A program made the position numbers and the translations under genes. The notes beneath the pieces are model-generated. The model had not been told where the DNA came from and ran no database searches. It saw nothing but the letters and a program-made list of their open reading frames with translations. A DNA stretch of 20,000 bases from an uncultured virus (IMG/VR IMGVR_UViG_3300032322_002129) (lineage: Duplodnaviria > Heunggongvirae > Uroviricota > Caudoviricetes): the IMG/VR virus record IMGVR_UViG_3300032322_002129; one strand, written 5' to 3'. This document shows positions 3-19,537 of this stretch, piece after piece. How positions within the stretch are numbered: position 1 is the stretch's first letter; each line of letters opens with the position of its first letter.

Positions 3-899
3 GGAAAACAGTGGGCTGTAGCTACATTTACCAAGACTGGTGAGAACGTTCCAGTAGTACGAGTAGAGATGACTGGTGGGCGTGTTATTCGATGTGATCC
101 TTCTCATGAGTTTTTTGTGAATGTATTTTCTTTAGAAAATGCTCGTAGGAAATTTAGTGATGTTATGAAAGTCCGCGCACAAGATCTAGAACCAGATATG
201 GTGCTTCATACATCACTACCACCAGTACACAACGAGCAGCAAGTAGATCGTGATGCGTACACGTTAGGCTATCTGTATGCTGATGGAGTATTTACCAAAA
301 ACAGCGCATATGTACATGTACCATGTAACACTGATGCTGCTGCAAGGCTATACACCAATTTACTTGTTTCAAGTAGGTATAAGTCTGCTAAAGTTATCAA
401 TGAGGGAGGTTTAGCCAAAGTTATTTACAAATCAGATAAGGAATATTGGTCTGGTAGAAAGAAAACTATCTTTCCAGAAGAGGTATACACCTACAACACA
501 AATCAAATTGTTTCATTTCTTGCTGGACTATTTGATGGTGCTGGTGTATTCAACGCAGATCAAGCGCGTGTGCGGCTAGTTTCAAAAGACAAAACCTTTC
601 TTCGATCAATTGCACGTCTACTAGAACAAGTAGGTATCTTTGCAGGAGTTGGTAAATCTGGATATTCAAAAACTGGCATGCAGCGATGGTGTTTAAATAT
701 TATGCACGATTACCTTTCTGCATTTGTTACAACTATCCCATGCCAGATTTTTAAACCTGATGTCAGTGAGTATGAGTCATATCGCGCATCAGATATTCGT
801 GTACTCTCTGTTACAGAAGACGGTGCAGAGGATGTGTTTTGCTGTGATGTGGGTGTTCCAGAGCACTCCTTTATGGCTGAAGGTATTATTATTTCTAAC
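3..899 (+). mobile_element. Intein with LAGLIDADG homing-endonuclease domain in the RNR (N-terminus lies outside the window)
   Basis: Block B-like IRCDPSHEFF, LAGLIDADG-like LGYLYADG and FLAGLFDGAG, block F/G DVFCCDVGVPEHSFMAEGIIISN followed by Cys (AAC 897-899, TGC 900-902). Confidence 0.9.
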
Positions 900-1760
900 T
901 GCACTGAGGTAACAAGTGCTGATGATTCGGATGTTTGTAACATTAGCTCTATCAATCTTGCTCGTATTGAAACGCTGGATGAGTTTAAGCATGTAGTCAA
1001 TCTTGCAATGATCTTCCTACTCTGCGGTACCTTATACAGCAAAGTGCCGTTTGCAGAAGTTGCAGCAACACGCGAGAAGAATAGACGTCTTGGATTAGGT
1101 TTAATGGGCATGCATGAATGGCTTCTTGTGCGCGGGAAGAAGTATGGCCCAGATCCAGAATTAGCCACATGGCTAGAACACTATAGCACATCAACAGATA
1201 TTGCAGCAGGATATGCTGATGAGCTTGGTATTAGCCGTTCGGTAAAGACACGGGCTATTGCTCCAACAGGCACCATTAGTATTATTGCAGAAACAACATC
1301 TGGTATCGAACCATTGTTCTGCTCTGCATTTAAGCGCCGATACTTGAAGGGAAATACCTGGCATTACCAATATGTGGTCGATGCAACAGCACAGCGTATT
1401 ATTGAGCGTGGTGTTGATCCTGATAGCATTGAAGACGCATATTCACTGGCAAATGATGTAGAACGCCGATTGGCATTCCAGTCGTTTGTACAGCAGTATG
1501 TTGACCACGGTATTTCTAGCACGATCAATCTTCCTGCTTGGGGAAGTGATTTGAATAATGAAACACGGGTTGACTCATTCGCTGACATGTTGATGAAGTA
1601 CCTTCCAACACTTCGCGGTATTACGACGTATCCTGATGGTGCTCGTGGTGGGCAGCCGTTGGTAGCAGTACCATATCGTGAAGCAGTGAATCAAACTGGT
1701 ACTGAGTTTATTGAGTATGGGAATGAGAATGCGTGTGTAAGTGGGGTGTGTGGGATTTAG
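3..1760 (+). CDS. nrdJ: Ribonucleotide reductase, class II (adenosylcobalamin-dependent NrdJ-like), 5'-truncated by the window edge, intein-containing
   Basis: Frame is open from base 3 (GKQWAVATF...), so the ATG at 69 is internal. The C-extein starts C-T-E (the C-x-E of the N-x-C-x-E radical motif), then VCNISSINL, RRLGLGLMG, AIAPTGTISI, TTSGIEP, DHGISSTINLP, GITTYPDGAR and a C-terminal CVSGVC Cys pair. There is no class I YY pair. Confidence 0.9.
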   Translation, partial: GKQWAVATFTKTGENVPVVRVEMTGGRVIRCDPSHEFFVNVFSLENARRKFSDVMKVRAQDLEPDMVLHTSLPPVHNEQQVDRDAYTLGYLYADGVFTKNSAYVHVPCNTDAAARLYTNLLVSSRYKSAKVINEGGLAKVIYKSDKEYWSGRKKTIFPEEVYTYNTNQIVSFLAGLFDGAGVFNADQARVRLVSKDKTFLRSIARLLEQVGIFAGVGKSGYSKTGMQRWCLNIMHDYLSAFVTTIPCQIFKPDVSEYESYRASDIRVLSVTEDGAEDVFCCDVGVPEHSFMAEGIIISNCTEVTSADDSDVCNISSINLARIETLDEFKHVVNLAMIFLLCGTLYSKVPFAEVAATREKNRRLGLGLMGMHEWLLVRGKKYGPDPELATWLEHYSTSTDIAAGYADELGISRSVKTRAIAPTGTISIIAETTSGIEPLFCSAFKRRYLKGNTWHYQYVVDATAQRIIERGVDPDSIEDAYSLANDVERRLAFQSFVQQYVDHGISSTINLPAWGSDLNNETRVDSFADMLMKYLPTLRGITTYPDGARGGQPLVAVPYREAVNQTGTEFIEYGNENACVSGVCGI

Positions 1761-1772
1761 CGTTATACTATT

Positions 1773-1803
1773 GGCGCACACAGGAATATAACTTGTGTGC
1801 GCC
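1773..1803 (+). terminator. Stem-loop after the RNR, probable intrinsic terminator
   Basis: GGCGCACACA-ggaatataact-TGTGTGCGCC, a perfect 10-bp stem 12 nt after the stop codon, followed by TTATATT. Confidence 0.6.
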
Positions 1804-1840
1804 TTATATTACAAAGTATATTTACACACAGTAGTAAACT

Positions 1841-2671
1841 ATGCAAGAAATACATAAAATAGAACCAGCATCAGAAGAATGGTGGCTTTTCCGGAAACCT
1901 ATCTCAGAAGCAACGATTACAGACAATGTACTTCACTGGGGTACTGGTGGGTTGAATATTGATGGGTGTAGGATTGAACTTGATGATGCCTCCAAAGAGA
2001 TGGCTGGTAAGTTGAAGCAGAGAACTAACAAACCTTCAGGGAGAGGACTTCATCACAATCCTAAATCAGATATTCAAAGAATAAAATTGGATCGAGAGAT
2101 TGACACTTTTAAGTTGTCTGGTCGATGGCCAGCGAATGTAGTGCACGATGGTAGTGATGAGGTGGTGGGGATGTTTCCAGATACTTTACCTGCAAAACAA
2201 GCAGAACGTGGTAAAGGTATTGACAGATCTACATTTCGACATAAATCTGGAGAATTACATGGTGTGAGAGGTCATAATGATTCTGGAGGTTCAGCAGCAC
2301 GCTTCTTTTATGGGGCAAAGGCAAGTGTGCGTGATAGGGATGAGGGGTTGAGTAATTTTACCAAAAAACGTTCTGGTGGTATGTCTGCTACATTGGATGG
2401 ATCAATGCTTACTGGTAGTGGTAATGAACGTACTACTACCCGCGCAAATATTCATCCTACGGTAAAGAGTACTGAGTTGATGCGGTATTTGTGTCGTTTA
2501 ATTACTCCCCCGCACGGAATAGTTCTTGATCCGTTTGCTGGTAGTGGAAGTACTGGAAAGGGTGCATTGAAAGAAGGTTTTCAGTTTATTGGTATTGAGA
2601 TGGATGAGGAGTATTATACTATTGCCCGCGCAAGGCTGGAGCATGTACTTCAGCAGAAAGGATCTTCATGA
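1841..2671 (+). CDS. DNA N4-C/N6-A methyltransferase (beta class), C-terminal half only
   Basis: Phage MTase signatures RKP...NVLHWGTGGLNIDGCRI, GRWPANVVHDGS, SAARFFY, NIHPTVKSTELMRYLCRLITPP and SAM-binding VLDPFAGSGSTG. The catalytic DPPY motif is absent, and an in-frame TAA at 1835 closes the frame upstream. Confidence 0.8.
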   Translation: MQEIHKIEPASEEWWLFRKPISEATITDNVLHWGTGGLNIDGCRIELDDASKEMAGKLKQRTNKPSGRGLHHNPKSDIQRIKLDREIDTFKLSGRWPANVVHDGSDEVVGMFPDTLPAKQAERGKGIDRSTFRHKSGELHGVRGHNDSGGSAARFFYGAKASVRDRDEGLSNFTKKRSGGMSATLDGSMLTGSGNERTTTRANIHPTVKSTELMRYLCRLITPPHGIVLDPFAGSGSTGKGALKEGFQFIGIEMDEEYYTIARARLEHVLQQKGSS

Positions 2672-3609
2672 GCTTTTATGCAGACTTTGAAGATGTGATG
2701 ATCGTTCCAACGTTTAGCCATCTAACAAGTAGGAAAGATGCAGAACTTACTGTTACGTATAAGTTTCTTTATTCAATGTATCCATTTACTGGTGTTCCGA
2801 TTGTAGCTTCAAATATGGATGGTGTTGGTACTCCTCAGATGGCTGAAGCACTAGCATCACATGGTATGCTTACGTGTCTTACAAAGTCATATACAAGTCC
2901 CGCACATGGAATACGAACATTTGGCTTACGTGAAGGTATTTCGGCTGTAGAGCAGTATATTCTACAACATAATCCAGAAATGATCTGTCTTGATGTAGCA
3001 AATGGGTATATGAGTACATTTGTTAATTTTGTACATGATGTGCGGGCTGTGTATAGCGGAACAATCATTGCAGGAAACGTTGTAACTCCTTCAGGAGTAG
3101 AAGCACTAACAAACGCTGGCGCAGATATTGTGAAGATTGGTATTGGATCTGGAAGCATGTGTACTACAAGGTTAAAGGCTGGTGTGGGTGTTCCACAACT
3201 TACAGCAATTATCACATGCGCTGAAGCACATCCTGAGGCATGTCTTATGAGTGATGGAGGATGTAGAAATCCAGGTGATGTAGTAAAAGCGTTTGCTGCT
3301 GGTGCATCTTTTGTAATGCTTGGTGGAATGTTTGCAGGTCATACAGAGGGTGGACACGTGCAAGGAGATCCATTCTACGGCATGTCTAGCCATGTGGCTA
3401 TGGAAAAGCACTATGGAAGTGTTGATGATTATCGCACATCTGAGGGAAGGGTAGTGCTTGTTGATCATAAAGGATCAGTACATGGTACTGTGCGTGATAT
3501 TCTTGGTGGTTTAAGGAGTGGTATGTCATACATCGGCGCACGCACAATTCCAGAAATTGCACGTAAAGCACGGTTTATTTACGCTAATCGTCAAGTTAAT
3601 CATCCATAA
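2668..3609 (+). CDS. guaC: GMP reductase (IMPDH/GMPR family)
   Basis: PIVASNMDGVGT, CLDVANGY, AGNVVT, KIGIGSGSMCTTR (catalytic Cys), MSDGGC, MLGGMFAGH, FYGMSS..AMEKHYG...YRTSEG, all typical of GuaC. No CBS insert. SD AGAAAGGA; ATGA overlap with the upstream gene. Confidence 0.85.
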   Translation: MSFYADFEDVMIVPTFSHLTSRKDAELTVTYKFLYSMYPFTGVPIVASNMDGVGTPQMAEALASHGMLTCLTKSYTSPAHGIRTFGLREGISAVEQYILQHNPEMICLDVANGYMSTFVNFVHDVRAVYSGTIIAGNVVTPSGVEALTNAGADIVKIGIGSGSMCTTRLKAGVGVPQLTAIITCAEAHPEACLMSDGGCRNPGDVVKAFAAGASFVMLGGMFAGHTEGGHVQGDPFYGMSSHVAMEKHYGSVDDYRTSEGRVVLVDHKGSVHGTVRDILGGLRSGMSYIGARTIPEIARKARFIYANRQVNHP

Positions 3610-3623
3610 AAAGGAGCTTATAT

Positions 3624-3848
3624 ATGCCAATGCCGAAACCACGTCCACGAGAGAATGAACAGGATTTTATTACACGCTGCATGGGCAATGATACCATGGT
3701 TACTGACTTCCCAGAGAATAATCAGCGTTCTGCGGTGTGTTATCAGCAGTGGAGAGATGGCCGTCGTCCACGCAGTCCTGCTGAAAAGACTGAAGCAAAA
3801 GCTCCTTCACGTTTTGATAGTCTTAATACTGGTGAAGTTGATCAGTGA
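3624..3848 (+). CDS. Small hypothetical phage protein (MP.PKP...E.E.DFI.RCM...QR.AVCY.QW type)
   Basis: Good SD (AAAAGGAG). The pattern resembles small conserved phage proteins I recall, but the function is unknown. Confidence 0.7.
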   Translation: MPMPKPRPRENEQDFITRCMGNDTMVTDFPENNQRSAVCYQQWRDGRRPRSPAEKTEAKAPSRFDSLNTGEVDQ

Positions 3849-3862
3849 TAGTAATTTTTGGT

Positions 3863-3902
3863 AAAAAACATCCTCTTATATAGATAGGAGGATGTTTTTT
3901 TT
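3863..3902. terminator. Intrinsic terminator, probably bidirectional
   Basis: AAAAAACATCCTC-ttatatagatag-GAGGATGTTTTTT, with an A-tract before the stem and a long T-tract after it. Confidence 0.85.
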
Positions 3903-3907
3903 TATTT

Positions 3908-3984: not shown

Positions 3985-3992
3985 GATATATT

Positions 3993-4784
3993 ATGGGAAG
4001 AAGAAAAATTACTCAAACACAGCAAACACAAGCTCCTCAACCAGCTGTGCGCGTGACAGAAAAAGAAGAAAAACCAACACCACCACAATTCAGTACACTT
4101 ACAAAAGATCAAATTATCGAAGAGTATAAACGATCGTACGACATCGATAACCTAACAACACCAAATGATAGAGCTAATCTTGATACGATGATTATGAACG
4201 CATTAGCTATTCGATCACTACAAGAAAAGCTCTTAGAGTTAGCAGTAGAAAACGTTATTGATAATGCTTCTGATATTAAACGCATCAATGACAGTATTCG
4301 CGATCTTACACAAACCAATCTTGCCATTGAACGACAGTTAAGTATTGACCGCAAGACAAGAAGGTCAGAATCTGAACAATCAGTACTTGAATATATTAAC
4401 TGGTTAAAAGATGCAGCATCAGAGTTTCTTAGCGATACTCCACGTCTCACAAAGATCTCTTGTAAGCGCTGTAATATTATGGTTGGTAGAATTAGTGGTG
4501 TGTATGATACCACATTCTTTTCTGCGGAGTTTCAATGTCCACAATGTAAAAAACATATCTATATTCGCAGAGATGAGCGTGACACATTCTATGACATCAG
4601 AGATCCAGATTGGCGTAGAAAGTATCCTATTGAAATTATTCAGCCAAATAACGCTATCCTGGATGCACCGTTGGATACTGCATTAGTAGAAGATGATGTA
4701 ATTATTAGTAATACGGTACAGGATGTTACAGAGTATGAGGATAAGGTAGTTGAGGTTTTTAGTGAGCCGCGCACACAGGAATAA
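3993..4784 (+). CDS. Putative terminase small subunit / Zn-ribbon protein
   Basis: ATG at 3993 with AAGGA SD is preferred over GTG 3966. Helical/coiled-coil N-half, CKRC...CPQC Zn ribbon, acidic tail. It lies directly upstream of TerL (2-nt gap); the TerS call is positional only. Confidence 0.5.
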   Translation: MGRRKITQTQQTQAPQPAVRVTEKEEKPTPPQFSTLTKDQIIEEYKRSYDIDNLTTPNDRANLDTMIMNALAIRSLQEKLLELAVENVIDNASDIKRINDSIRDLTQTNLAIERQLSIDRKTRRSESEQSVLEYINWLKDAASEFLSDTPRLTKISCKRCNIMVGRISGVYDTTFFSAEFQCPQCKKHIYIRRDERDTFYDIRDPDWRRKYPIEIIQPNNAILDAPLDTALVEDDVIISNTVQDVTEYEDKVVEVFSEPRTQE

Positions 4785-4786
4785 CT

Positions 4787-7366
4787 ATGCCTATACGAAA
4801 AAAGCTAGATGAAAAGGATTTAGACCTTTTAGAAGTACTAGAAGATGAAGTGTGGTTAACTGAGTTTTTACGCAACACATCAGACGGTGAGTATAATCGT
4901 GCGCTTTGGCCAGCACAACCATGGAAGTATCGAGACTATCAAAAACAAATACTTACTGATAAATCAAAATACATTTCTCTTACTGGTGGGCGTGCTATTG
5001 GTAAGTGTGAGCCGGGTGAAGCAAAGATCCTTACCGTAGGGCGTGGATATATGATGTTGAAAGACCTGGTGAAAGAAACATCATTTCCCGTGTATGCGCT
5101 GGATCAATACTCAAACCTTGTTCAGCGTAGAGCAAGAGTTACACCAGATGATATGGCTCCAGTAAAAAAGATTTATACTCGTGCGGGGCATTTAATACAC
5201 GTTACAGCAGAACATCCAATCCTTACACCAGATGGATGGGTAAAAGCAGAAAACATTGATGTAGGATCGCTAGTTGGTGTATTGACACAAATACCCAACG
5301 ATATGATTAGTCAAACATTTGCCTGGCATGAATTACGATTTTTTGGATATATTTTACTAGATCCCCCATTGCGTGAAAGTACTGTTTTTGTGCCGAAGTA
5401 TAAAAAGATTGGTGAAGAGTTTAAGTATATTTGTTCTCTTTTACCAGTAGATGTATTTCCTCGTGAGAATGGGTTTGGTGTGCGTAGGGTTAAGGGTGGG
5501 TATTTTTCTACAATCCGCGCACTTTACAATGATGTAGGCTTTGATGATGACTACGTATTTTCCTTGCGTATGTCAAGCATGCCTGAACTATTGATGCTAG
5601 AGTGTAAAGATAATCTTAAAGTATTTCTTGAAGCACTGTTTGCTCAGTTTGCAGAGGTATCTGCGCGGGAGATTAGTATATTTACACGCTACGAATCACT
5701 TACCTTTGCACTACAAACAATGCTCTTGCGCTTTGGTATTGAATCACGCATTACTACAAAAGACGAACCAAATAGTTATAGCCTTGAAATACTTGATTAC
5801 GAAAATGTGTATGATTTCTGGAAAACATTTACATTACCCGGTGTATCTGTTGATCAACTAGAAGAGCCTGTACGTAAAGCACGAGTAAATGCACATCTTC
5901 GATATGATGAAGTGGTGTATGTGGATATGCCAATATATCCAGTACAAACATATGCTGTCCATGTGCGCGAAGATAATAACTATATCTCCAGTAACATCTA
6001 TGTACATAACACTGTAGTACTTGAAGATAAAATTATCTACGAGGTAGTAAACTATGAACGTGAGTTTCCTGTTACACCAGAGCAGGTACTTACCACAGCC
6101 AACCAGTCGCAGATGCAGCCATTGCTGTCAAAACTTATACAACGTTTTACTTCAAGCCCACTACTAAAACATTATTTACAGAACAATGTAAATAAACAAG
6201 ATGGTACGATGAGGTTTCCTGCACGAAGTAAACCATTCACGTTTTACTTTCGTATCGCAGGTAGTAAAGGCGAAAACAACGTCGTAGGGCTTCACGTACC
6301 AAAAGTGAAAATTGATGAAGCACAACTGTACCCACCAAATGCGTACACACAACTGCTTCCGATTATTAACTATTGGGAACCTAAAACACAGCTTCTTATT
6401 ACTGGAGTATCAAATGGTTTACGTAATTCTGTGTTGTATTTAGTAGATCAAAAAGATCCGAAGTTTAAGAAATATCGTATTCCCTCGCACAATAACCCAT
6501 TCTACTCACGAGAGCAGGATTTACAGAACTTACGTGACTGGGGCGGTGAGAATGATGATCGCTATGTTCAGCTTGTACTTGGTAGACACGGATCAGCAGC
6601 ATTTCAAATCCTTACCAGAGATGATTTTAAAGTAGAAAGTTTTCCATTTCATAATTATCGATACCAGAGTAATCAGAAGATGAAAGGTATTCATTATCAC
6701 GAAGTATTAGGAACACCAGCTATTCCAGAATCAATCCAGCTTGTCATGGCTATTGATACAGGATTTGTTGATCCTACCATTATTCAGCTTATTGGTATGG
6801 ATAAGTATCACATTTGGAGAACCTACTGTAGGTATCACCTAAATCGTATTGACTTTACTGAGCAGAGAAAGATTATTCATTGGTTAGCTACAGAATATAA
6901 TGTACAAACAATTGCGATGGATATTGGTGCTGGTGGTGGTGGTGCTGGTATTATGCACGCACTACTCCATGAGGACGAATATAAAAACGATAACTATAAC
7001 CAACGAATTGTACCAGTCATTTTTAATGAAAAGATTGTTGTAGGATTACGCGAATCTGGTGAGGAAGTAGCAGATGATGCAAAGTCACATGGTACAAAAG
7101 TACTAGTGACCGAAGTTCAATCAAGCCGATTAGTATTTAGTGATGTAGATCATGAGGGGATTTCACAACTTGAAAGAATATCGAAGCAAAAACTTAGTAC
7201 TGGAAAAGATCGTTATTTTGTACTATCCGATCGCGGAAGTGGTGCAGATTCAAATGATCACATTTATGCCAGTTATATTTGTTTTGGCATTGCAATTGAT
7301 CGTGGTTTAGTAAAGCCCGCGCAAGCTACACGAAAGCTACCAACAGTATCTGGAGTGTATACCTAA
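4787..7366 (+). CDS. terL: Terminase large subunit, intein-containing
   Basis: Adenine-binding YRDYQ, Walker A GGRAIGK|T split by the intein, Walker B VKIDEAQ, coupling-motif region ITGVSNG, RNase H-like nuclease AIDTGFVDPT...MDIGAGG...NDHIYAS. The spliced product would be 524 aa. Confidence 0.9.
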   Translation: MPIRKKLDEKDLDLLEVLEDEVWLTEFLRNTSDGEYNRALWPAQPWKYRDYQKQILTDKSKYISLTGGRAIGKCEPGEAKILTVGRGYMMLKDLVKETSFPVYALDQYSNLVQRRARVTPDDMAPVKKIYTRAGHLIHVTAEHPILTPDGWVKAENIDVGSLVGVLTQIPNDMISQTFAWHELRFFGYILLDPPLRESTVFVPKYKKIGEEFKYICSLLPVDVFPRENGFGVRRVKGGYFSTIRALYNDVGFDDDYVFSLRMSSMPELLMLECKDNLKVFLEALFAQFAEVSAREISIFTRYESLTFALQTMLLRFGIESRITTKDEPNSYSLEILDYENVYDFWKTFTLPGVSVDQLEEPVRKARVNAHLRYDEVVYVDMPIYPVQTYAVHVREDNNYISSNIYVHNTVVLEDKIIYEVVNYEREFPVTPEQVLTTANQSQMQPLLSKLIQRFTSSPLLKHYLQNNVNKQDGTMRFPARSKPFTFYFRIAGSKGENNVVGLHVPKVKIDEAQLYPPNAYTQLLPIINYWEPKTQLLITGVSNGLRNSVLYLVDQKDPKFKKYRIPSHNNPFYSREQDLQNLRDWGGENDDRYVQLVLGRHGSAAFQILTRDDFKVESFPFHNYRYQSNQKMKGIHYHEVLGTPAIPESIQLVMAIDTGFVDPTIIQLIGMDKYHIWRTYCRYHLNRIDFTEQRKIIHWLATEYNVQTIAMDIGAGGGGAGIMHALLHEDEYKNDNYNQRIVPVIFNEKIVVGLRESGEEVADDAKSHGTKVLVTEVQSSRLVFSDVDHEGISQLERISKQKLSTGKDRYFVLSDRGSGADSNDHIYASYICFGIAIDRGLVKPAQATRKLPTVSGVYT
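5006..6010 (+). mobile_element. Intein (335 aa) in the TerL Walker A motif, with degenerate LAGLIDADG domain
   Basis: Begins CEPGEAKILT (TGT 5006), block B HVTAEHPILTPDGW, ends TYAVHVREDNNYISSNIYVHN followed by Thr (AAC 6008-6010). The endonuclease motifs are eroded (FFGYILLDP, FLEALFAQFA). Confidence 0.92.
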
Positions 7367-7397
7367 ATGTGCGCGTACGAATAAAAGATTATGATAT

Positions 7398-10339: not shown

Positions 10340-11104
10340 ATGACAACGATTATTCATGATGACTGTGTGCGCGGGCTACAAACACTACCACCAAACAGTG
10401 TAGACGTAATCTTTATCGATCCACCATACAACACTGGGGTAACAGAAGATAAAACACCAAAATACTCGCGTAATGAAGATTATGTAAAAAAGAACTGGAA
10501 GAGCTTTCATGCAGACTGGGATGTTATCGATGATTATTATCAGTGGGCTAGAAGTTGGTTGAGTGAGAGTAAACGAGTACTAAAAGAACACGGATCAGTC
10601 TTTATTTGCGGTAGTTTTCATAACATTCCAGATGTTGCAATGGCATTACGTAGTTTGAACTGTTACACTATTCAATGGATCTCTTGGTGTATTCCAAATA
10701 GTTTTCCTAATTTGTCTATGACAAAGATGGTGAGTTCTAATCAGGTTTTAATTTGGGCGCGCGCAAACAGTAAACACTTCTACGACGCAGAAGCAGCAAA
10801 GCGGTACAATGACGGTAAAAACCTACGCGATTATTGGGTTATTCCAAACAATACTTCAGAAAATAAAGGAAAAGTTTGGTTACGACATCCAAGCAAAAAG
10901 CCTACAGAGCTGGTTCAACGAGCTATTGATATTGCATTACCAAAAGAAAACAACGTACACGTAGTAGACTTTTTTGCTGGTAGTGGAACGACAGGGTCAG
11001 TGTGTAAGCGTCTATCACAAATGTACAATATTGATATTAATTGTACACTGATTGAACGTGAAGAGCAATACGTTTCATGGATTACAGAAAGGATGCGCTC
11101 ATGA
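10340..11104 (+). CDS. DNA amino-methyltransferase, beta class (CcrM/DpnA-like)
   Basis: IFIDPPYN, ICGSFHNI, W...PN.FPN, NDGKNLRDYWVIP, HPSKKP, VVDFFAGSGTT. ATG 10340 with AAAGGA SD; the track start at 10286 lies upstream of the promoter's start site. Confidence 0.88.
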   Translation: MTTIIHDDCVRGLQTLPPNSVDVIFIDPPYNTGVTEDKTPKYSRNEDYVKKNWKSFHADWDVIDDYYQWARSWLSESKRVLKEHGSVFICGSFHNIPDVAMALRSLNCYTIQWISWCIPNSFPNLSMTKMVSSNQVLIWARANSKHFYDAEAAKRYNDGKNLRDYWVIPNNTSENKGKVWLRHPSKKPTELVQRAIDIALPKENNVHVVDFFAGSGTTGSVCKRLSQMYNIDINCTLIEREEQYVSWITERMRS

Positions 11105-12056: not shown

Positions 12057-12602
12057 ATGAACAGTACTATGAGTAGTGTAACATTACAGGCATCTAGTGT
12101 AGAGACTATTGAAGACGCTCAAATGATGCGTGAGATTAGAAACAGTGTGCGCGAGTATATGACACGTGATACAGATAACATTACACCAGAACAACAATAT
12201 CAATGGTTCTATAGTATGTATACATCTAGTAAATATGATGCGTATTTATTTTATAGCGCGCACGGATGCTGTGTAGGTTATGGTATGCTTACATCTTCTG
12301 ATGATAAGGTATGGGGAACGCTAGCAGTAAAGAAAGAGTTTCAAAATCAAGGATATGGGACTGCTATTTATCAATACCTTACTAGAGTATGTGCAGAGTT
12401 TAAAGAGCAGTATGAAGATCATTTTTATAAGGGCGAAGTGTATCACTATTTTTCAAAACTGTATGAAGATCTGTGGATTGAAATCTATGCAGATAATGCG
12501 GAAAGTCTGCGAGCAGCACAAAAGGCAGGATTTGAAACAGTACATGTGGGCGACAAGGTAGTTACGCTTGTTCATAGAGGAAGGAACGCAGATGAATCCT
12601 GA
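12057..12602 (+). CDS. GNAT-family N-acetyltransferase (PseH-like N-terminus)
   Basis: REIRN.VREYM...ITPEQQYQWF, VGYG, acetyl-CoA motif A LAVKKEFQNQGYGT, motif B EIYADNAESLRAAQKAGF. Confidence 0.82.
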   Translation: MNSTMSSVTLQASSVETIEDAQMMREIRNSVREYMTRDTDNITPEQQYQWFYSMYTSSKYDAYLFYSAHGCCVGYGMLTSSDDKVWGTLAVKKEFQNQGYGTAIYQYLTRVCAEFKEQYEDHFYKGEVYHYFSKLYEDLWIEIYADNAESLRAAQKAGFETVHVGDKVVTLVHRGRNADES

Positions 12603-13686
12603 ACGCACTATTCCACTATTTAAAGTATTTATGTCAAATCAAGCAAAGGCTAATGTACAAGAGGTATTAAATAGTGGGTACATTGGTCAAGGGCCATATG
12701 TAGAAAAGTTTGAAGATCTATTTGCTAATTATGTAAAGTCAGATAAACCTATTATTTCACTCAACTCTGCTACATCTGGTTTGCAGCTTGCTTGTTATAT
12801 GATTGGCTTGCGTGAAGGCGATGAGGTAATCACTACACCAATTACGTGTACTGCTACACAGACTGGTATTGTGAGTAGTAAGGCTACGATTGTATGGGGT
12901 GATGTTGATCCGCGCACAGGTTTGCTTGACGTCGATGATGTGCGGGCTAAAATGACAAAACACACAAAAGCCATCATTGCCACCAATTGGGGTGGTAGAA
13001 AGCCTAACTATGTTGAACTAAAAAAGTTAGGTGTACCAGTTATTGAAGATGCAGCCCATGGGCCATATGAAGTAACAGAGAATAGTGGTGATTACATCGT
13101 ATGGTCAACACAAGCTATCAAGTTTCTTACTACTGGAGATGGTGGGATGTTGTACTGCTCAGATCCAGAACGTGCACGCTTACTACGTTGGTATGGGCTT
13201 GATCGTCGATCCTCTAAAGATTTCCGCTGTGCACAGGATATTCAAGAAGCAGGGTTTAAGTATCATATGAATGATATTGCTGCTGCTATTGGATGTGGGA
13301 ATATTAGGTATTTAAAGTCTTTAATTAACGCGCACAAACGACATGCGCGTGCATATGAAAATTTGTTGACTGTAGACAGACCGTCATATGATCCAGAATG
13401 TCCATACTGGATTTACACCATTTTCTGTAAAAATCCTACGTTGTTAAGTGAACAACTAAAGAACTTTGGTATTGATTCCAGCCCAGTGCATGCGCGAAAT
13501 GACAAACACACTGCATTTCGTCGTATTGCAAAATATAGTGATAATACTGGTGTAGTAGAGTATGACAGCACACAGCTAAACATCCCTGTTGGTTGGTGGC
13601 TAGACAGGAATGACACGGGGATTGTAGACGATCTCGCATACATTGCTGATATAGTAAATGCACTAGTCGAAAGGATGGGCTTATGA
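12592..13686 (+). CDS. DegT/DnrJ/EryC1/StrS-family PLP-dependent NDP-sugar aminotransferase
   Basis: SGYIGQGPYVEKFE, NSATSGL, GDEVITTPIT, IEDAAH, WSTQAIKFLTTGDGG (PLP Lys), GFKYHMNDIAAAIG. ATG 12592 after GAGGAAGGA. Confidence 0.92.
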   Translation: MNPERTIPLFKVFMSNQAKANVQEVLNSGYIGQGPYVEKFEDLFANYVKSDKPIISLNSATSGLQLACYMIGLREGDEVITTPITCTATQTGIVSSKATIVWGDVDPRTGLLDVDDVRAKMTKHTKAIIATNWGGRKPNYVELKKLGVPVIEDAAHGPYEVTENSGDYIVWSTQAIKFLTTGDGGMLYCSDPERARLLRWYGLDRRSSKDFRCAQDIQEAGFKYHMNDIAAAIGCGNIRYLKSLINAHKRHARAYENLLTVDRPSYDPECPYWIYTIFCKNPTLLSEQLKNFGIDSSPVHARNDKHTAFRRIAKYSDNTGVVEYDSTQLNIPVGWWLDRNDTGIVDDLAYIADIVNALVERMGL

Positions 13687-14441
13687 AAAAATTAGTACTA
13701 TTTGCAGTACCAACATACAAAAAGCTTCAGATGTGCGCGGATCTTGTACAATCAGTTCCAGACGAAACAGATATTGCTATCTACAATCGGTTAATTATTG
13801 ATAACAGTGGTGGTGAAGTAAAGCGTCAATTTCCTGATCTTGAGTCACGCTGTATGATTGCTACTCCAGTACATAATATTGGTGTTGCGCGATCTTTTAA
13901 TCTTGCTCTCCATATTGGAAGCGTGTATGAGTATGATTATGTGATTATCAGTAATGATGATCTTGTATTACGTCCAGATACGCTTGATACGCTTGTAGCA
14001 GCAGCAATTGAGCAAGACAGTGATCACAAGAAGCTGATCTTTTGTACTAGTGGTGGTGGGTTAAATGCGTTTTCTCTTTTTCTTGCACCCCCCACAGAGC
14101 TGATTAAGCGTGTTGGTTTCTTTGAGGTAGCGTATTTTAGCTATCTAGAAGATAACGATATGCACTATCGACTACAGCTCTACGGAGCTGATCTCGTACG
14201 TGTACCTGGATGTGATGTAGAATCGCATGAAGTTAGTGCTACTATTAAAGAGTTCATTGGTGCAGAAGTTGAACACTTCCACAGATATCGTGCAAAGGGT
14301 ACACAGGAGTATCTACGTAAGTGGGGAGGTGGCCCACATGCAGAGGTCTATCAGACACCATATGACAGTGGACTTGACAGTACAACCTGGCATCGTGTAT
14401 ACTATTGCAAGGAAGATCCTATCAACCTTCCAGATTACTAA
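13683..14441 (+). CDS. Glycosyltransferase, GT-A fold (family 2-like)
   Basis: FAVPTY, LIIDNS, HNIGVARSFN, ISNDDL, VGFFE..YFSYLEDNDMHYRL, YLRKWGG. ATGA overlap with the aminotransferase. Confidence 0.85.
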   Translation: MKKLVLFAVPTYKKLQMCADLVQSVPDETDIAIYNRLIIDNSGGEVKRQFPDLESRCMIATPVHNIGVARSFNLALHIGSVYEYDYVIISNDDLVLRPDTLDTLVAAAIEQDSDHKKLIFCTSGGGLNAFSLFLAPPTELIKRVGFFEVAYFSYLEDNDMHYRLQLYGADLVRVPGCDVESHEVSATIKEFIGAEVEHFHRYRAKGTQEYLRKWGGGPHAEVYQTPYDSGLDSTTWHRVYYCKEDPINLPDY

Positions 14442-14771: not shown

Positions 14772-14802
14772 TGTGCGCGCACAATAAAAGAAAGGATACG
14801 TT

Positions 14803-15431: not shown

Positions 15432-15455
15432 GTTACCGTGATGTAGCAGTATAGC
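15424..15455. repeat. Inverted repeat containing the -10 box
   Basis: GCTATACTGTTAC-cgtgat-GTAGCAGTATAGC, 13-bp arms with one T.G pair. Confidence 0.8.
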
Positions 15456-15482
15456 CTACACGATAGGTAGAAAGTAGTAAGT

Positions 15483-15695
15483 GTGGCAAAGCATCGAACA
15501 TTAAAAGAAGAAACAGAGTTTACTGTAGGTAGTAAGGTGCGGGTTACTGATAAAAACACAGAACATTACCAACAAGTAGGAGAAGTAGTACGTTTAGGAT
15601 CTGCTGGTGAGGTATTGTATATTATGGTGTTGTTTCCTGGTTATATCACACCGCGCACATTTGTGCATCAGCAGATAGAGTTAGAAAGGGTGTAA
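15483..15695 (+). CDS. Small KOW/SH3-like beta-barrel protein
   Basis: GTG start; FTVGSKVRVTD...QVGEVVRLG...IMVLF pattern. Confidence 0.55.
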   Translation: MAKHRTLKEETEFTVGSKVRVTDKNTEHYQQVGEVVRLGSAGEVLYIMVLFPGYITPRTFVHQQIELERV

Positions 15696-15696
15696 T

Positions 15697-16248
15697 ATGG
15701 ATTATTATGGTGTTCGCACTATTGATCTTGCCCACGCAGTAACAAGGTTTTTTAATTTACACTACACACTACCTGATGAAGAGGTAAAAGCAGTAAGTAC
15801 CGTAAATCACCTACAGGCTTTGTGGGAGCGTAAGCGTGGTGGTTGGCTTCGGATCAAGCACGATGTGCTATCATACACAGCACGATCAGGGTTTCTGAGC
15901 TTTGTAGTTACTCCAAGTGAGTTTACTATCAAGCTCTATAAAATACCATACTTCCCACAGCCAAAAGGAGCAATTCCTATTGTACATATTACCTATTATG
16001 CTCCTACATATGCTCAAGGACGTACCACAAGTACCAGAAGTGTTTCTGTGTACATTGATAAATCAATCGATCTTTTATCGCAGAATCTAGTAAGTGTTGC
16101 TCCTCTTTATACTATTGATAATCCGTTAGGTTTTAATGGTTTTCTGGAAAACCTTTTAGAAGAAACATCTGATGGAATTATTCGTACAGATTGGATGACG
16201 AGGAGTGCTGCTCGGGATCTTTTATACGCTATGCGCACATATCGATAA
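15697..16248 (+). CDS. Hypothetical protein
   Basis: 183-aa ORF, SD AGAAAGGG, packed between neighbours; no motif recognised. Confidence 0.7.
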   Translation: MDYYGVRTIDLAHAVTRFFNLHYTLPDEEVKAVSTVNHLQALWERKRGGWLRIKHDVLSYTARSGFLSFVVTPSEFTIKLYKIPYFPQPKGAIPIVHITYYAPTYAQGRTTSTRSVSVYIDKSIDLLSQNLVSVAPLYTIDNPLGFNGFLENLLEETSDGIIRTDWMTRSAARDLLYAMRTYR

Positions 16249-16262
16249 TATAGGGGGTAATT

Positions 16263-17027
16263 ATGTTCTTTGGGCCAATCGTAACCAACATGGGTAGTAG
16301 GGCTTCGTTCATTGATACGCTTGCACGATGGGATAAGCAGAACTTTACCAGTGTGAAGGTGATTACTGGATGGGGGCTGTCTGGTGGTTGGAGTTCTAAT
16401 GATCGCGCACAAATCCTTTCGTTTACATCTAATCCTATCGTGCGTACCGTAGCTGGAGATCCTTCTTCACGTCGTCATCCTCTACCCCATCCTGGTATTA
16501 TTATCGATGAGTTACGACCGTGGCTTGACATGAAGTTCAACCTTATGGTAGAATTAGGTAATGAGCCAAACATCAAGCCTGTAGAAGATCGCTTTATCTG
16601 GGAGTATCGTTATTTTCTGGATCAGAGCATTGATCTTGTGCGGCGAATGTATCCACACGCACACATCATTGCACCAGCACTTATTGTCAACAACACGGCA
16701 CAGCGATGGTTTGATGTGTGTAAAAATGTATTTGAGAAGTGTGACAGTGTAGGTATTCATGCCTATGAGCATATCAGTTTTTCACCACTGGATAACATTC
16801 CCCGCACAAATCAACTAGCTACGCTGAATACAATGTATGAGGAAGTTAAAAAGCCAAAAGTCATGACAGAATATGGTATCAACGATTCAAAGGTATCAAA
16901 AGTGGTAAAACTGCGTGAGTATATGGAGATGCTGCCAAAGCTCAAGGCTTTGGGATATATTGGAGCTACATTTTATCACATTAATGTAAAAGAGGATATT
17001 GATCCGCAATATCATATTCCAGTATAG
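16263..17027 (+). CDS. Glycoside hydrolase, clan GH-A-like TIM barrel
   Basis: Acid/base VELGNEPN, VGIHAYE and nucleophile VMTEYG in canonical order; no signal peptide evident. Confidence 0.75.
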   Translation: MFFGPIVTNMGSRASFIDTLARWDKQNFTSVKVITGWGLSGGWSSNDRAQILSFTSNPIVRTVAGDPSSRRHPLPHPGIIIDELRPWLDMKFNLMVELGNEPNIKPVEDRFIWEYRYFLDQSIDLVRRMYPHAHIIAPALIVNNTAQRWFDVCKNVFEKCDSVGIHAYEHISFSPLDNIPRTNQLATLNTMYEEVKKPKVMTEYGINDSKVSKVVKLREYMEMLPKLKALGYIGATFYHINVKEDIDPQYHIPV

Positions 17028-17053
17028 TGTAGGATAGTAGAAAGGATGTTCGT

Positions 17054-17263
17054 ATGTCACAACCAGTATATATCGTGCAAGTAAAGTTTACTAGTCCACA
17101 AAAAGCAGAGCTATTTGCACGATGGATGTCACAACACGCGGTGCATGATTATGCACAATATTCACAAATGAGCGGTCAGGATACTGGTGTTTCGATGTTT
17201 GTGCGCGAACGACAAGATAGAGATCTACCACACATTACTTTCATCAACGCAATGGGAGTATAG
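17054..17263 (+). CDS. Hypothetical protein
   Basis: 69 aa, SD AGAAAGGA. Confidence 0.7.
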   Translation: MSQPVYIVQVKFTSPQKAELFARWMSQHAVHDYAQYSQMSGQDTGVSMFVRERQDRDLPHITFINAMGV

Positions 17264-17275
17264 AAAGGATACATT

Positions 17276-17509
17276 ATGTATACTACTGATTTTGACAAAC
17301 TACTTCGTCTGTACGAAATTGCGCTAGATTCTCAAAATCCAGCAGACGCACAGAGAGTTTTCAATCTTGTGCGCCCCATCGCAGAACGCATGATTTATGA
17401 GTTGCTAGAAGTTTCCCTTGTTGCACGAAATCTTGTTGATGGTAAGCGTGATGTAACTACAGAGGATCTTATTTCTGCTGTACATCATGCTCGTAATGTG
17501 GTAGTATAA
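17276..17509 (+). CDS. Hypothetical helical protein
   Basis: 77 aa, SD AGAAAGGA. Confidence 0.7.
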   Translation: MYTTDFDKLLRLYEIALDSQNPADAQRVFNLVRPIAERMIYELLEVSLVARNLVDGKRDVTTEDLISAVHHARNVVV

Positions 17510-17529
17510 TTAGTTAGAAAGGCGCTCAC

Positions 17530-17976
17530 ATGAACGCACCACGAGCAGATAAAGGAGCTTCACTTACTAAAATCGTAGCAATTGTTGTTTGGCTCTTCGG
17601 AACAATTATGACGTTTAATTTTATGAACCAGACAACTTCTGGATCATGGGAGTTCATCCAACTTGCTGCAATCTCGTTTGGTATTCAGCTCGTACTTACT
17701 TTAGGGCAGAGTCCAATTTGGACTGGATCAACAAAAACGTGGCAAGTTAGCGCTATGAGCTTATTTTGTCTTATCAGTGATGTGCTGATTAACTTTGGTG
17801 GTGCATTATCAGTGATGGCGCAAGTAGATGCCTCTGGAAGTATTCAGGCATTTTCCAGCACATTCTTTGGGACATCAGCTGATTTCCCAATGTGGGTCAA
17901 AGGGATGCTTGCACTTATTGTCAGTATTGCTATTGCAGGACTTCCAGAATATCTCTGGCGTCTGGATATGAAGTAA
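17530..17976 (+). CDS. Integral membrane protein (about 4 TM)
   Basis: Four hydrophobic segments; SD AGAAAGG. Confidence 0.7.
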   Translation: MNAPRADKGASLTKIVAIVVWLFGTIMTFNFMNQTTSGSWEFIQLAAISFGIQLVLTLGQSPIWTGSTKTWQVSAMSLFCLISDVLINFGGALSVMAQVDASGSIQAFSSTFFGTSADFPMWVKGMLALIVSIAIAGLPEYLWRLDMK

Positions 17977-17986
17977 GGAGTTTCGT

Positions 17987-18544
17987 ATGGGATATGATCA
18001 CTGGATGACGCCACCAGATGAGTTGGAGCTTGCTCGGAGTATCATGGGCAGCATTACGTTAGATCCCGCAAGCAACGCGGTAGCACAGCAGTATGTACGT
18101 GCAGAACAGTATGCTGTGCTACCAGAGGAATATGATGGAAGTCCAGGTCAGGTTGTTGATGGGTTGCAGATCGCTTGGTCTGGTAATGTTTGGCTTAATC
18201 CTCCATACAGTAAACCAGTAGCAGACTTTGCAAAGAAAGCAGCAAAGGAACTACCAAACGTTACCAGTATGATGATCCTCGTTAATTCACAAACTGATGC
18301 AGCGTGGTATCATTTACTGATGGAGAAAATGTATTACCTGTGTCTCTATCGAGGTAGAATTAAGTTCTGGAAGGTATTTGACGGGGCTGCACATCAGCGC
18401 TGGATTAGTACTACTACCAGTAAAATGACAAACAGTCCTAGATATACCAATAGTGTATTCTTCCACAGCAAGGATGATGCAGCATTGAAGAGATTTGCGC
18501 AGGTATATGCAAGGAAGGGTAAAGTGTTAGTGCCTTTATATTAG
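17987..18544 (+). CDS. Phage DNA N6-adenine methyltransferase (Dam-like, phage T1/HP1 type)
   Basis: DHWMTP, ITLDPAS, DGL..AWSGNVWLNPPYS, LVNSQTDAAWY, GRIKF. Confidence 0.85.
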   Translation: MGYDHWMTPPDELELARSIMGSITLDPASNAVAQQYVRAEQYAVLPEEYDGSPGQVVDGLQIAWSGNVWLNPPYSKPVADFAKKAAKELPNVTSMMILVNSQTDAAWYHLLMEKMYYLCLYRGRIKFWKVFDGAAHQRWISTTTSKMTNSPRYTNSVFFHSKDDAALKRFAQVYARKGKVLVPLY

Positions 18545-18563
18545 CTTACCAGAAAGCAAACCA

Positions 18564-18594
18564 GTGTGCGCGGTGTTATAGTCGCCGCGCACAC
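18564..18594. repeat. Intergenic stem-loop built from two inverted copies of the TGTGCGCG motif
   Basis: GTGTGCGCGG-tgttatagtcg-CCGCGCACAC, perfect 10-bp stem; no U-tract. Confidence 0.75.
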
Positions 18595-18614
18595 CACAGA
18601 AAGGAAGGAAAAGG

Positions 18615-18806
18615 ATGCGGACACACTATCTTGTAAAAGATCTTCGACAAGCATGTCGGGAAAGACTGGGAATGGTTACGAATGGTCAAGTGTTGCTCGG
18701 TGAAGTACAGTTTAAAGTTCTGTGGGATGACAACAAGCATGAGTGGGTAGCTGCCAAGTATGTAGCAGAGGATGAAGACGATCAGGATGAGCCTTATAAG
18801 GGCTAG
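18615..18806 (+). CDS. Small hypothetical protein with acidic tail
   Basis: 63 aa after purine-rich AGAAAGGAAGGAAAAGG. Confidence 0.55.
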   Translation: MRTHYLVKDLRQACRERLGMVTNGQVLLGEVQFKVLWDDNKHEWVAAKYVAEDEDDQDEPYKG

Positions 18807-18818
18807 AAAGCAGGTAAT

Positions 18819-19502
18819 ATGGTAAAATATGTAGACTGCGCTGGTGTGCGCGAAATGGTATACATCTCAAAAAACGACATCCATCCAGCAATGGCAGAAG
18901 CAATTAGCCAATATTATAATCAACCAGTAGCAGTAGGAGTAGATATTGAAACAACAGGCTTAGATCCTCGCTATGATCGCATCTGTACGATTCAGGTTTC
19001 ATTACGATATGTGGGAACAAACGTCATCCAGCTAGATCCAGGAGCATTTCCAAAAAACCTGATAAACTATCTCACAGATAGCAATGTACATAAGATCTTT
19101 CACTACGCTATGTTTGATGTAGGATTTCTTTTGTATACGTATAAGCATATGCTTCGAAGTGTTAAATGTACGCGCACAGCAGCATCTATTGTCGATCCTA
19201 CACGACAAAAGTTTTTCTATCATGGAAAGCCAAGTCTTAGCCTTGCAGCACTGGTAGATCACTATTTTCAAGATACATTGAATAAAAAGCTCGCAGTAAG
19301 TGATTGGTCTAATCCCGATCTTACAGAAGAGCAGCTTGCGTATGCTGCAAAGGATTCATACTATCTCACGGATCTCTACTATCGATTGACAGAAGAGATG
19401 AATGATTTTGAGTATGACATGTATCTTGCTGCTTGTGAATGGCTTCCCTATAAGGTGTATGCGTTACAGAGCTTTCAACCAGATCACTTTAGTCGTGATT
19501 AG
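18819..19502 (+). CDS. Stand-alone DEDDy 3'-5' exonuclease (PolA proofreading / RNase D-like)
   Basis: ExoI VDIETTGLDP, ExoII FHYAMFDV, SLAALV, SDWS..DLTEEQLAYAAKD (ExoIII Y...D). Confidence 0.88.
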   Translation: MVKYVDCAGVREMVYISKNDIHPAMAEAISQYYNQPVAVGVDIETTGLDPRYDRICTIQVSLRYVGTNVIQLDPGAFPKNLINYLTDSNVHKIFHYAMFDVGFLLYTYKHMLRSVKCTRTAASIVDPTRQKFFYHGKPSLSLAALVDHYFQDTLNKKLAVSDWSNPDLTEEQLAYAAKDSYYLTDLYYRLTEEMNDFEYDMYLAACEWLPYKVYALQSFQPDHFSRD

Positions 19503-19537
19503 ATAGCCGTGACTAAAGTGTGCGCGGAGGGAGTATT

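Follow-up and report, generated by a model that had tools for sequence, protein, structure and literature searches.

Why does one eight-base word, TGTGCGCG, recur 21 times on both strands of 20,000 nucleotides (nt) of DNA from an uncultured virus of the Caudoviricetes (IMG/VR record IMGVR_UViG_3300032322_002129)? This stretch, called the window below, corresponds to bases 1-20000, reverse-complemented, of a virus contig of 24,912 bases with 40% G+C. A preliminary description had listed 21 copies, 12 on the plus and 9 on the minus strand, and all of them were recovered at their positions. When the window was shuffled 200 times with dinucleotides preserved, the octamer occurred 0.36 times on average (SD 0.57), with a maximum of 2 copies. 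The whole 24.9 kb contig contains 30 copies, making the octamer its most frequent 8-mer, and sub-words of the octamer are its top 7-mer and top 6-mers. Markov models of orders 1 to 3 predicted 0.31, 0.64, and 1.22 copies in the contig. The predictions of orders 4 and 5 were 4.4 and 17.4 copies, but these are circular since the models are trained on the motif itself.

To control for coding, 200 synonymous shuffles were made in which the protein sequence and the codon usage of each gene were kept fixed. The genes of the contig contain 24 octamers against 1.76 ± 1.25 (maximum 6) in the shuffles. The same comparison was made for G001, a virus genome of 85,328 bases (63% complete by CheckV estimate) whose portal protein is 98% identical to that of the window and whose aligned DNA is 92.8% identical. 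Its genes contain 40 octamers against 4.22 ± 1.85 (maximum 9) in the shuffles, and the genome as a whole contains 50 octamers and 0 copies of the reversed control word. Thus, the over-representation survives dinucleotide shuffles, Markov models of orders 1 to 3, and synonymous-codon shuffles, and it extends beyond the window, with the qualification that the contig and G001 are close relatives and not independent samples. The octamer occurs about once per 0.8-1.7 kb (30 in the 24.9 kb contig, 50 in about 62 kb of G001) and its TGCGCG core once per 0.5 kb. The bases immediately flanking the octamer are not conserved. The 24 words that differ from it at one position, such as TGTGCACG, add up to 35 occurrences in the contig, at 0-5 per word, compared with the 30 perfect copies; the many one-mismatch variants mentioned earlier do exist, but their number is modest.

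A broader, directional signal with three parts underlies the octamer, which is its most frequent spelling. The first is a TGCGCG core with TG before it and/or G after it. After a gap of 7 nt follows the second, an A-rich hexamer starting with TA (TAWAAM), and beyond it the third, a tail of about 40-60 nt that is rich in A and C and poor in G and T on the motif strand. The window has 36 TGCGCG cores against 4.25 ± 2.19 in shuffles, and G001 has 164 against 26 copies of the reversed control, spread evenly at about 10 per 5 kb. Approximately seven in ten of the 221 CGCG tetramers of G001 fall in a TGCGCG context, while the total of CGCG in its genes is near the codon-shuffle expectation (172 vs. 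156).

The flanks were analyzed with the 126 TGCGCG cores of G001 that lie outside its first 15.5 kb, hereafter the dispersed cores. Fifty of them are preceded by TG and so make the octamer, another 48 are followed by G without a preceding TG, and 28 show neither addition. Copies were oriented by the word, and their composition was compared with controls matched for gene and orientation. Upstream of the cores the composition was flat. Downstream, the A content at +13 to +18 was 0.511 compared with 0.306 in the controls (z +11.6), and the A/T fraction there was 0.76 compared with 0.60. Over +20 to +79, G was lowered (0.165 vs. 0.202, z -8.0), and A (0.357 vs. 0.306, z +9.2) and C (0.224 vs. 0.195, z +6.2) were raised. 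The A+C content stayed at 0.58-0.69 over +15 to +55 and returned to the baseline of 0.50 by about +80, with no 10-nt phasing in the tail. The constrained flank is thus one-sided and extends about 70 nt downstream of the word.

A TA step was found exactly at +13 in 40 of the 126 dispersed cores (background 8.8%) and anywhere within +10 to +16 in 108 of them (background 50.7%). When aligned on this step, the hexamer reads TAWAAM, its last position showing no enrichment of T. Both the TA patch and the tail were seen separately in sense, antisense, and intergenic copies, and in all three spelling classes. The compositional shift of the tail was greatest at third codon positions (G 0.07 vs. 0.13 in antisense copies, A 0.42 vs. 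0.31 in sense copies), indicating that the tail is written mainly through synonymous choice. The earlier proposal of a genome-wide signal is borne out in part, as selection at the DNA level that is independent of frame and gene orientation, with a density and sharpness like those of uptake sequences or Chi, but its unit is not the bare octamer. A longer repeat or mobile element was rejected as the source of the copies, the flanks being unconserved besides their composition and the TA patch and the portal alignment having few indels (506 columns, 495 residues).

The same core also occurs in promoters. The octamer is missing from the first 18 kb of G001, a region of small minus-strand genes; bases 1-15500 (loci L006 and L033-L037) contain about 30 small genes without a known family. 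Fourteen early genes of G001 are preceded by a near-identical cassette, aacaNaaagctc TTGACA ggaTGCGCGGnaagTGG TATAAT. These are consensus sigma-70 promoters with a TG-extended -10 element (TTGACA or TTGATA, 17 nt, TATAAT or TAAAAT). In 13 of the 14 spacers TGCGCGG is constant while the neighbouring spacer bases vary; the promoter at 1479 reads TGTGCGGG. Counted from the hexamers, this box lies at about -26 to -20, and TATAAT begins at +14 from the T of the core, one base beyond the +13 of the dispersed copies. A second, inverted box about 45 bp upstream turns each early intergenic region into a long imperfect inverted repeat with arms of roughly 17 bp. The first promoter of the rightward arm (G001 54099) carries TGTGCGTG beside its -10 element. 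When the early-promoter word TTGACAGGATGCGCGG was searched in IMG/VR, multiple matches were found only in G001 and single chance matches elsewhere.

Relatives were found by portal search. Besides G001 these were three fragments of 6-9 kb with 77-78% portal identity (G003, G004, and L038), the 12.9 kb L039 with 74%, and G002 with 60%, which has 106,876 bases, terminal repeats, and 27 tRNA genes and is 68% complete by CheckV estimate. Ten distant relatives (L040-L049) have 36-38% portal identity, and the genomes behind three of them (G410, G411, and G412, behind L044, L047, and L049) are 134-153 kb long and 90-100% complete. L050, with 32% portal identity, contains 4 CGCG.

Between the contig and G001, single copies are conserved above background. 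Of 29 aligned octamers 25 are intact, compared with 61.6% of all aligned 8-mers (p 0.004), and in the opposite direction the count is 25 of 26; for TGCGCG cores it is 38 of 46 against a background of 68.1%. At about 73% DNA identity, in G003, positions turn over (one of four aligned cores kept, background 16%) and the enrichment persists, with 2 octamers in 6.9 kb. There are 2 octamers in G004 as well, and 2 in G002 (reversed control 6). The spelling differs between lineages. L039 has 20 copies of TGCGGG in 12.9 kb, 16 of them in genes compared with 3.9 ± 1.7 after shuffling, with the same TATA-like patch and G-poor tail; 4 octamers are also kept there. G002 contains 84 TGCGCG (63 in genes vs. 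22 ± 4.4) and 42 CCCGCG (32 vs. 6.9), and its core stands between AT-rich arms (TATAAT-GCGCGgc-TATTAT) without the one-sided tail. This AT-armed core is a symmetric version of the signal. In G002 (L011-L016; e.g., at 23757, 24028, 24547, 34137, and 36734), 15 of 21 intergenic copies are located 9-61 nt before a start codon, beside the ribosome-binding site. Z-DNA as the selected property was set aside, as other alternating spellings are rare (e.g., CGTGCGCG and TGCGCGCG, 1 copy each) and TGCGGG, used by a sister lineage, does not alternate.

The three near-complete distant relatives contain neither TGCGCG nor its reversed control GCGCGT in 435 kb, and the loci from all ten distant relatives (5.7-21 kb each, 37-40% G+C) contain no CGCG. 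It looks as if these phages wholly avoid a CGCG-type restriction site. Genes for N6/N4 methyltransferases number three in G001, two in G002, and one in one of the three distant genomes, the other two having none. For the suggestion that the word is the target of one of the phage's own DNA-modifying enzymes, the link to the methyltransferases is only circumstantial. An excess of TGCGGC/TGCCGC in the distant relatives was rejected as a comparable signal, as it reflects conserved Ala-Ala coding on the sense strand. In L044 (21 kb of G410), the word AAGCGGAA has 8 copies against 0.44 expected; it contains GAAGCGG, which we take to be the Chi sequence of Staphylococcus aureus.

The genes of the relatives are longest open reading frame (ORF) calls, so that coding and intergenic counts and frames are approximate. 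On this basis, 107 of the 126 dispersed cores (85%) lie within genes, 64 in sense and 43 in antisense orientation (p 0.053). The remaining 19 (15%) lie in non-coding DNA, which makes up 7.4% of the sequence, and 13 of these 19 point at the next gene. Ten co-oriented cores were found at most 50 nt upstream of a start codon, compared with 4.6 expected. The sense bias, the non-coding excess, and the proximity to start codons are mild signs of a link to gene expression. Cores occur in all frames, mostly over Val-Arg, Met-Arg, x-Ala-Arg, and Arg-Ala, and they hold 28% of all CGC and 25% of all CGG codons. Their spacing is Poisson-like, the gaps on each strand averaging 1.0-1.2 kb, and even spacing was not found. 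The octamers of G001 (27 forward, 23 reverse) show no polarity along the genome. A check of strand and spacing had been proposed; both orientations are indeed used, with neither a genome polarity nor a regular interval.

For the window (Table 1), coding status was assessed with plus-strand ORFs of at least 80 amino acids, which leaves 8.3% of it non-coding. Thirteen of the 21 octamers are in genes and eight are between genes or on a gene edge, two or three of the latter falling in small ORFs of G001. The earlier description had put six copies in the scarce intergenic DNA, where we count eight with gene edges included; both of its placements within inteins were correct. A minority of copies form the arms of hairpins at gene ends.

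The core in the early-promoter spacers points towards transcription, a role absent from the preliminary description. Our preferred reading, put forward tentatively, is that a phage-specific DNA-binding factor docks at the box and acts on RNA polymerase or together with it. We favour it because the same box stands at a near-constant distance from a TA hexamer in the early promoters as well as at some 130 further sites, with constraint on one side only beyond it; such a geometry suits a site at which the box is bound and some process begins, or is halted, a short way downstream. The sequences themselves show the enrichment, the selection on the DNA, the three-part anatomy, its sharing with genuine promoters, and the spellings particular to each lineage, whereas the protein reader, its contact with RNA polymerase, and the role of the dispersed copies are the three things that we infer. 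According to this reading, a phage-encoded sequence-specific factor would bind the TGCGCG box. In the early promoters the box would serve as an operator, where a factor bound between -35 and -10 could turn off early transcription. At the approximately 130 dispersed sites, the box and the meltable TA patch may form promoter-like sites without a -35 element or sites that arrest the polymerase, in either direction. Differing spellings in relatives would be expected if box and reader change together.

Several observations weigh against a factor of this kind. That 107 of the dispersed cores lie in genes, 43 of them against the gene direction, is odd for promoters and not tied to transcription as stoperators are. 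The dispersed hexamer lacks the last-position T needed by sigma-70 and has no -35 element, and a plain sigma-70 consensus scan of the window was at chance (61 matches vs. 59.8 in shuffles). Several intergenic copies are too near the ribosome-binding site to be the promoter of that gene. An operator model leaves the A/C-rich tail of 40-60 nt without a role. Scans of the window and G001 with Pfam (73 proteins) and PHROGs (83) named no sigma factor, RNA polymerase, or regulator, and nearly all early proteins were without a Pfam or PHROG match. Finally, the early promoters were seen in G001 only, the window contig stopping short of that region; their presence in the window's own phage is suggested by its close relationship to G001.

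It is also possible, though we consider it unlikely, that the word tags the phage's own DNA. Like Chi or uptake sequences, it would be recognised on a single strand by a translocating machine (a nuclease-helicase, a recombinase loader, or one for uptake or packaging), and it would protect or mark phage DNA from either entry end, with the tail as low-structure single strand beside the tag. The density of the word, its use of both strands and all frames, and the excess of perfect copies over any one-off word fit such a tag, as do the turnover of sites at about 73% identity with the enrichment kept and the dialects of the sister lineages. DNA uptake sequences (DUS) and uptake signal sequences (USS) likewise form inverted pairs in hairpins at gene ends, and some inverted pairs form such hairpins here. 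A PD-(D/E)XK nuclease and resolvase-like nucleases are encoded by the phage. A core followed by a 3' AT-rich segment matches the layout of the Pasteurellaceae USS as given in the available portion of PMC1626085, and Chi enrichment in phages has precedent in the available portions of PMC3784561 and PMC12315714. Against a tag stand the Poisson-like rather than even spacing, the lack of genome polarity, and the lack of phage-like density among 401 cyanobacterial genomes (one phylum sampled). A tag also leaves unexplained why the early promoters have a fixed box at a set distance from the -10 element.

Less can be said for sites of DNA-synthesis start or nicking, which we regard as improbable. Here the box would direct a primase-helicase, a transcript primer, or a nickase, the strand would begin in the TA patch, and the A/C tail would be the first new stretch. 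The geometry of box, fixed gap, meltable TA patch, and one-sided tail does resemble initiation. Sites lie on both strands, and their mean gap per strand is within the usual range of Okazaki fragments. Among the phage's own genes are those for a DnaB-like helicase, a DnaG/TOPRIM-like primase, and a family A DNA polymerase. However, known DnaG-type primases recognise trinucleotides, and the sites have no regular spacing. Sequence-specific nicks are carried by T5-like and other phages, with R/GCGCRGG as the T5 consensus in the available part of PMC3517423. Three annotated T5 sites read AG/CGCAGGG, all on the same strand; they resemble TGCGCG(G) only loosely, and T5 has few such sites. A search for the T5 nickase gave nothing usable.

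An element acting at the RNA level is very unlikely. According to this explanation, GC-rich hairpin arms would stabilise or process mRNA 3' ends, and the C-rich, G-poor tails would act as rut-like loading sites for Rho, limiting read-through or antisense transcription. Two strong hairpins with the word in their arms do stand at gene ends in the window, one 3' of the ribonucleotide reductase (RNR) gene (-22.2 kcal/mol, z -6.6) and one 3' of the Dam-like methyltransferase gene (-24.0 kcal/mol, z -5.2, without a U-run after it). The early-promoter box together with its inverted counterpart 45 nt upstream would give a stem of roughly 17 bp in read-through RNA. Sites for rut are rich in C, low in G, and about 60 nt long, like the tail. 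Nevertheless, only about 12 inverted pairs occur among the 126 dispersed cores, the others being singletons, and the 12-base palindrome TGTGCGCGCACA does not fold into a hairpin (-4.3 kcal/mol, z -0.16). A rut tract requires neither a fixed word nor a TA hexamer, and the gain of A in the tail (+0.05) exceeds that of C (+0.03).

We give an equally low probability to a by-product without any reader, in which phage methylation with mismatch repair, or relief from restriction avoidance, pushed CGCG words into one context. Such an origin would be consistent with the absence of TGCGCG and its reversed control from the three distant genomes and of CGCG from the ten loci, with the presence of two or three N6/N4 methyltransferase genes in the word-rich phages against none in two of the three CGCG-free relatives, and with the concentration of CGCG in the TGCGCG context at a near-expected total. 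A mutational drive predicts neither a TA hexamer at a fixed distance nor a one-sided tail at synonymous sites, nor does it predict an invariant box in promoter spacers or above-background conservation of single copies. Nor did a Vsr-like repair gene come up in the scans with Pfam and PHROGs. Last, an origin by chance, or as an artefact of how codons, dipeptides, or shorter k-mers are used, could appeal to the 17 copies given by the order-5 model trained on the contig and to the many octamers over Val-Arg, Ala-Arg, and Arg-Ala dipeptides, but it was rejected and is hardly credible, as none of the 200 dinucleotide shuffles reached 21 copies, codon shuffles gave 1.8 and 4.2 copies where 24 and 40 were observed, and octamers lie in every frame, on both strands, and in intergenic DNA too.

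A wider picture than the preferred docking site is conceivable, and we offer it as a doubtful one. The box, the melt patch, and the unstructured tail may constitute a private signal of a small clade of freshwater phages, which would mark, on either strand and at intervals of about 0.5 kb, the points at which some strand-specific machine loads or begins its work. RNA polymerase with a phage factor, a helicase/primase, or a nuclease could be this machine. The signal would double as the control box of early promoters, its spelling would shift with its reader (TGCGCG, TGCGGG, and AT-flanked TGCGCG/CCCGCG), and it would have arisen in a clade whose remoter members lack TGCGCG. Perhaps the gain of methyltransferases by the word-rich phages made such words safe to use.

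A host or a precedent was sought in several ways. A check for enrichment in related phages and candidate hosts had been proposed; enrichment was found in the close relative G001, while none of 401 cyanobacterial genomes (G005, G010-G409) had a phage-like octamer density, the top value being about 240 copies in 6.2 Mb (approximately 1 per 26 kb). Many large cyanobacterial genomes (5-7 Mb) have a mild excess, with the octamer at 3-4 times the reversed control (e.g., 242 vs. 66 and 219 vs. 66). G001 has no tRNA genes, a portal profile search of genome contigs gave no match, matches to the DegT protein were scattered across many phyla at 30-48% identity, and an Atlas look-up of the GMP reductase gave no host information. 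In the window and G001, searches with Pfam and PHROGs gave no integrase and nothing else suggestive of lysogeny. A literature text search by word strings gave no phage or bacterial signal among the matches listed, and from this we make no claim that the signal is absent from print.

Megablast against 50,697 phage records gave no DNA-level match to the window, and the best protein matches were just 24-28% identical (the portal to Bacillus, Clostridium, and Microcystis phages, the polymerase to Leptolyngbya and Pseudanabaena phages). The DNA was found in freshwater or aquatic metagenome runs; all 20 runs listed are DNA metagenomes, with no RNA run among them. The sizeable genes of the window are all on the plus strand. 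RNR and the large terminase both carry LAGLIDADG inteins. In G001, the RNR gene (56774-59760; L008 16774-19757) is instead split into two pieces by a free-standing gene for a LAGLIDADG_2 endonuclease; the two close phages thus carry different mobile elements in the same gene. Bases 11077-14441 of the window encode a GT2 glycosyltransferase, a GNAT acetyltransferase, a DegT-type aminotransferase, and another ORF without assignment, and a DUF1599 'nucleotide modification associated' protein (14803-15369) adjoins them; three DNA methyltransferases are encoded elsewhere in the window. This group could be a module for DNA hypermodification or for virion glycosylation. The longest ORF of the amidase (8758-9618) begins at a TTG within the 3' end of the portal gene (7398-8885), an overlap of 128 bases, and the true start probably lies further downstream.

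Table 1. Copies of the signal and genes in the window (strand as noted for the feature)
Feature	Position	Strand	Context
TGTGCGCG	174..181	-	antisense, RNR intein
TGTGCGCG	1127..1134	+	sense, RNR gene
TGTGCGCG	4046..4053	+	sense, ORF 3966-4784
TGTGCGCG	4768..4775	-	antisense, end of ORF 3966-4784
TGTGCGCG	5962..5969	+	sense, terminase intein
TGTGCGCG	7368..7375	+	between terminase and portal genes
TGTGCGCG	10366..10373	+	sense, N6/N4 methyltransferase gene
TGTGCGCG	12146..12153	+	sense, GNAT gene
TGTGCGCG	12911..12918	-	antisense, DegT aminotransferase gene
TGTGCGCG	13329..13336	-	antisense, DegT aminotransferase gene
TGTGCGCG	13732..13739	+	sense, ORF 13683-14441
12-base palindrome TGTGCGCGCACA, two overlapping octamers	14772..14783		intergenic, about 20 nt before next ribosome-binding site
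TGTGCGCG	15652..15659	-	gap 15370-15696
TGTGCGCG	16404..16411	-	antisense, ORF 16263-17027
TGTGCGCG	17200..17207	+	gap 17028-17529; within small ORF in G001
Hairpin, arms are inverted octamers at 18565 (+) and 18586 (-)	18564..18594	+	directly 3' of Dam-like methyltransferase gene
TGTGCGCG	18845..18852	+	sense, 3'-5' exonuclease gene
TGTGCGCG	19171..19178	-	antisense, 3'-5' exonuclease gene
TGTGCGCG	19519..19526	+	immediately 5' of ribosome-binding site of last ORF
Hairpin, arms GGCGCACACA / TGTGTGCGCC (one-off octamer spelling)	1773..1803	+	3' of RNR gene
TGCGCG cores without TG prefix (n = 15), part 1	783-, 2441-, 2627-, 5516-, 5662+, 7318-, 8202-, 8280-	given with position	
TGCGCG cores without TG prefix (n = 15), part 2	9882-, 9982-, 10760-, 12257-, 13344+, 13491+, 13886+	given with position	
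RNR with intein	3-1760		
Large terminase with intein	4787-7366		
Further genes: N6/N4 DNA methyltransferase; GMP-reductase-like enzyme; portal; amidase; second N6/N4 methyltransferase			
Further genes: GT2 / GNAT / DegT sugar-modification group; DUF1599 protein; Dam-like methyltransferase; 3'-5' exonuclease			

In how it works, the signal comes closest to an operator/stoperator set or to a word of the uptake or Chi type, but it lacks defining features of each. In cluster A mycobacteriophages, which have an L5 gp71-type repressor, one asymmetric word is found in the early promoter and in more than 20 copies scattered over the genome, and stoperators lie in short intergenic spaces with their orientation following transcription (PMC9283540, available portion). 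Similarly, the same asymmetric box occurs here in 14 early-promoter spacers of G001 and in about 130 other places. On the other hand, 85% of the dispersed copies are intragenic, with 64 in sense and 43 in antisense orientation, and the word has 6-8 bases followed by a TA hexamer and a G-poor tail, whereas stoperators have 13 bases. Stoperator systems have a cognate repressor, while no regulator was named here by Pfam or PHROGs, with G001 63% complete. As for the general sigma-70 pattern of a -35 element, a spacer of 16-18 nt, and a -10 element with A at position 2 and T at position 6, directed at a gene, the 14 early promoters of G001 have it and the dispersed copies do not.

The available portion of PMC1626085 describes the Pasteurellaceae USS as a core with an AT-rich 3' segment, with perfect copies outnumbering one-off ones and with dialects between clades. 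The phage word shares with USS and DUS a density of about one copy per kb, both orientations, all frames, more perfect than one-off copies, the 3' AT-rich segment, the dialects, and some hairpin pairs. USS, however, are found on the chromosome of the competent bacterium itself, whose uptake machinery reads them, whereas the carrier here is a phage and the word is linked to promoter spacers. Chi is over-represented in some lambdoid phages (PMC3784561 and PMC12315714, in the portions available), and like Chi the word is a sharp, non-palindromic, G/T-rich octamer that is phage-enriched and directional. But Chi is a host word borrowed by phages, recognised by the host's RecBCD or AddAB and both over-represented and strand-skewed in the host chromosome, and its function needs orientation alone, without a long constrained flank; here, close relatives respell the word, there is no genome polarity, and about 70 nt are constrained on one side.

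The nick sites of T5-like, phiKMV-like, and tf-like phages number 4-14, all on one strand, in the available text of PMC3517423. They too are short conserved phage words, and the T5 consensus has GCGC and then GG, but the T5 sites (AG/CGCAGGG) are on the minus strand, compared with 50-164 sites on both strands here. A likeness to HIP1 (GCGATCGC) had also been proposed. Both are highly iterated, GC-rich octamers in genomes of moderate G+C; HIP1, however, is a palindrome of the cyanobacterial chromosome and the word here is asymmetric, and GCGATCGC has 0 copies in G000, G001, and G002, so this comparison was dropped. We place the signal among the iterated recognition words, as a variant outside any named family. 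Chi, uptake sequences, the FtsK-orienting polar sequences (KOPS), and stoperators are rare cases in which a DNA word is itself under selection, and in each case a specific molecular machine was found behind the word. What sets the present case apart is a lytic-looking phage without cultured relatives, a three-part anatomy written through synonymous codons, and the sharing of the word with the strongest promoters of the phage. The lytic-looking carrier, the measurable anatomy, and this sharing make the signal testable, and comparison with the TGCGCG-free sister phages amounts to a natural experiment: it may show how restriction pressure, together with the methyltransferases of phages, shapes the set of words that a phage can use as signals.

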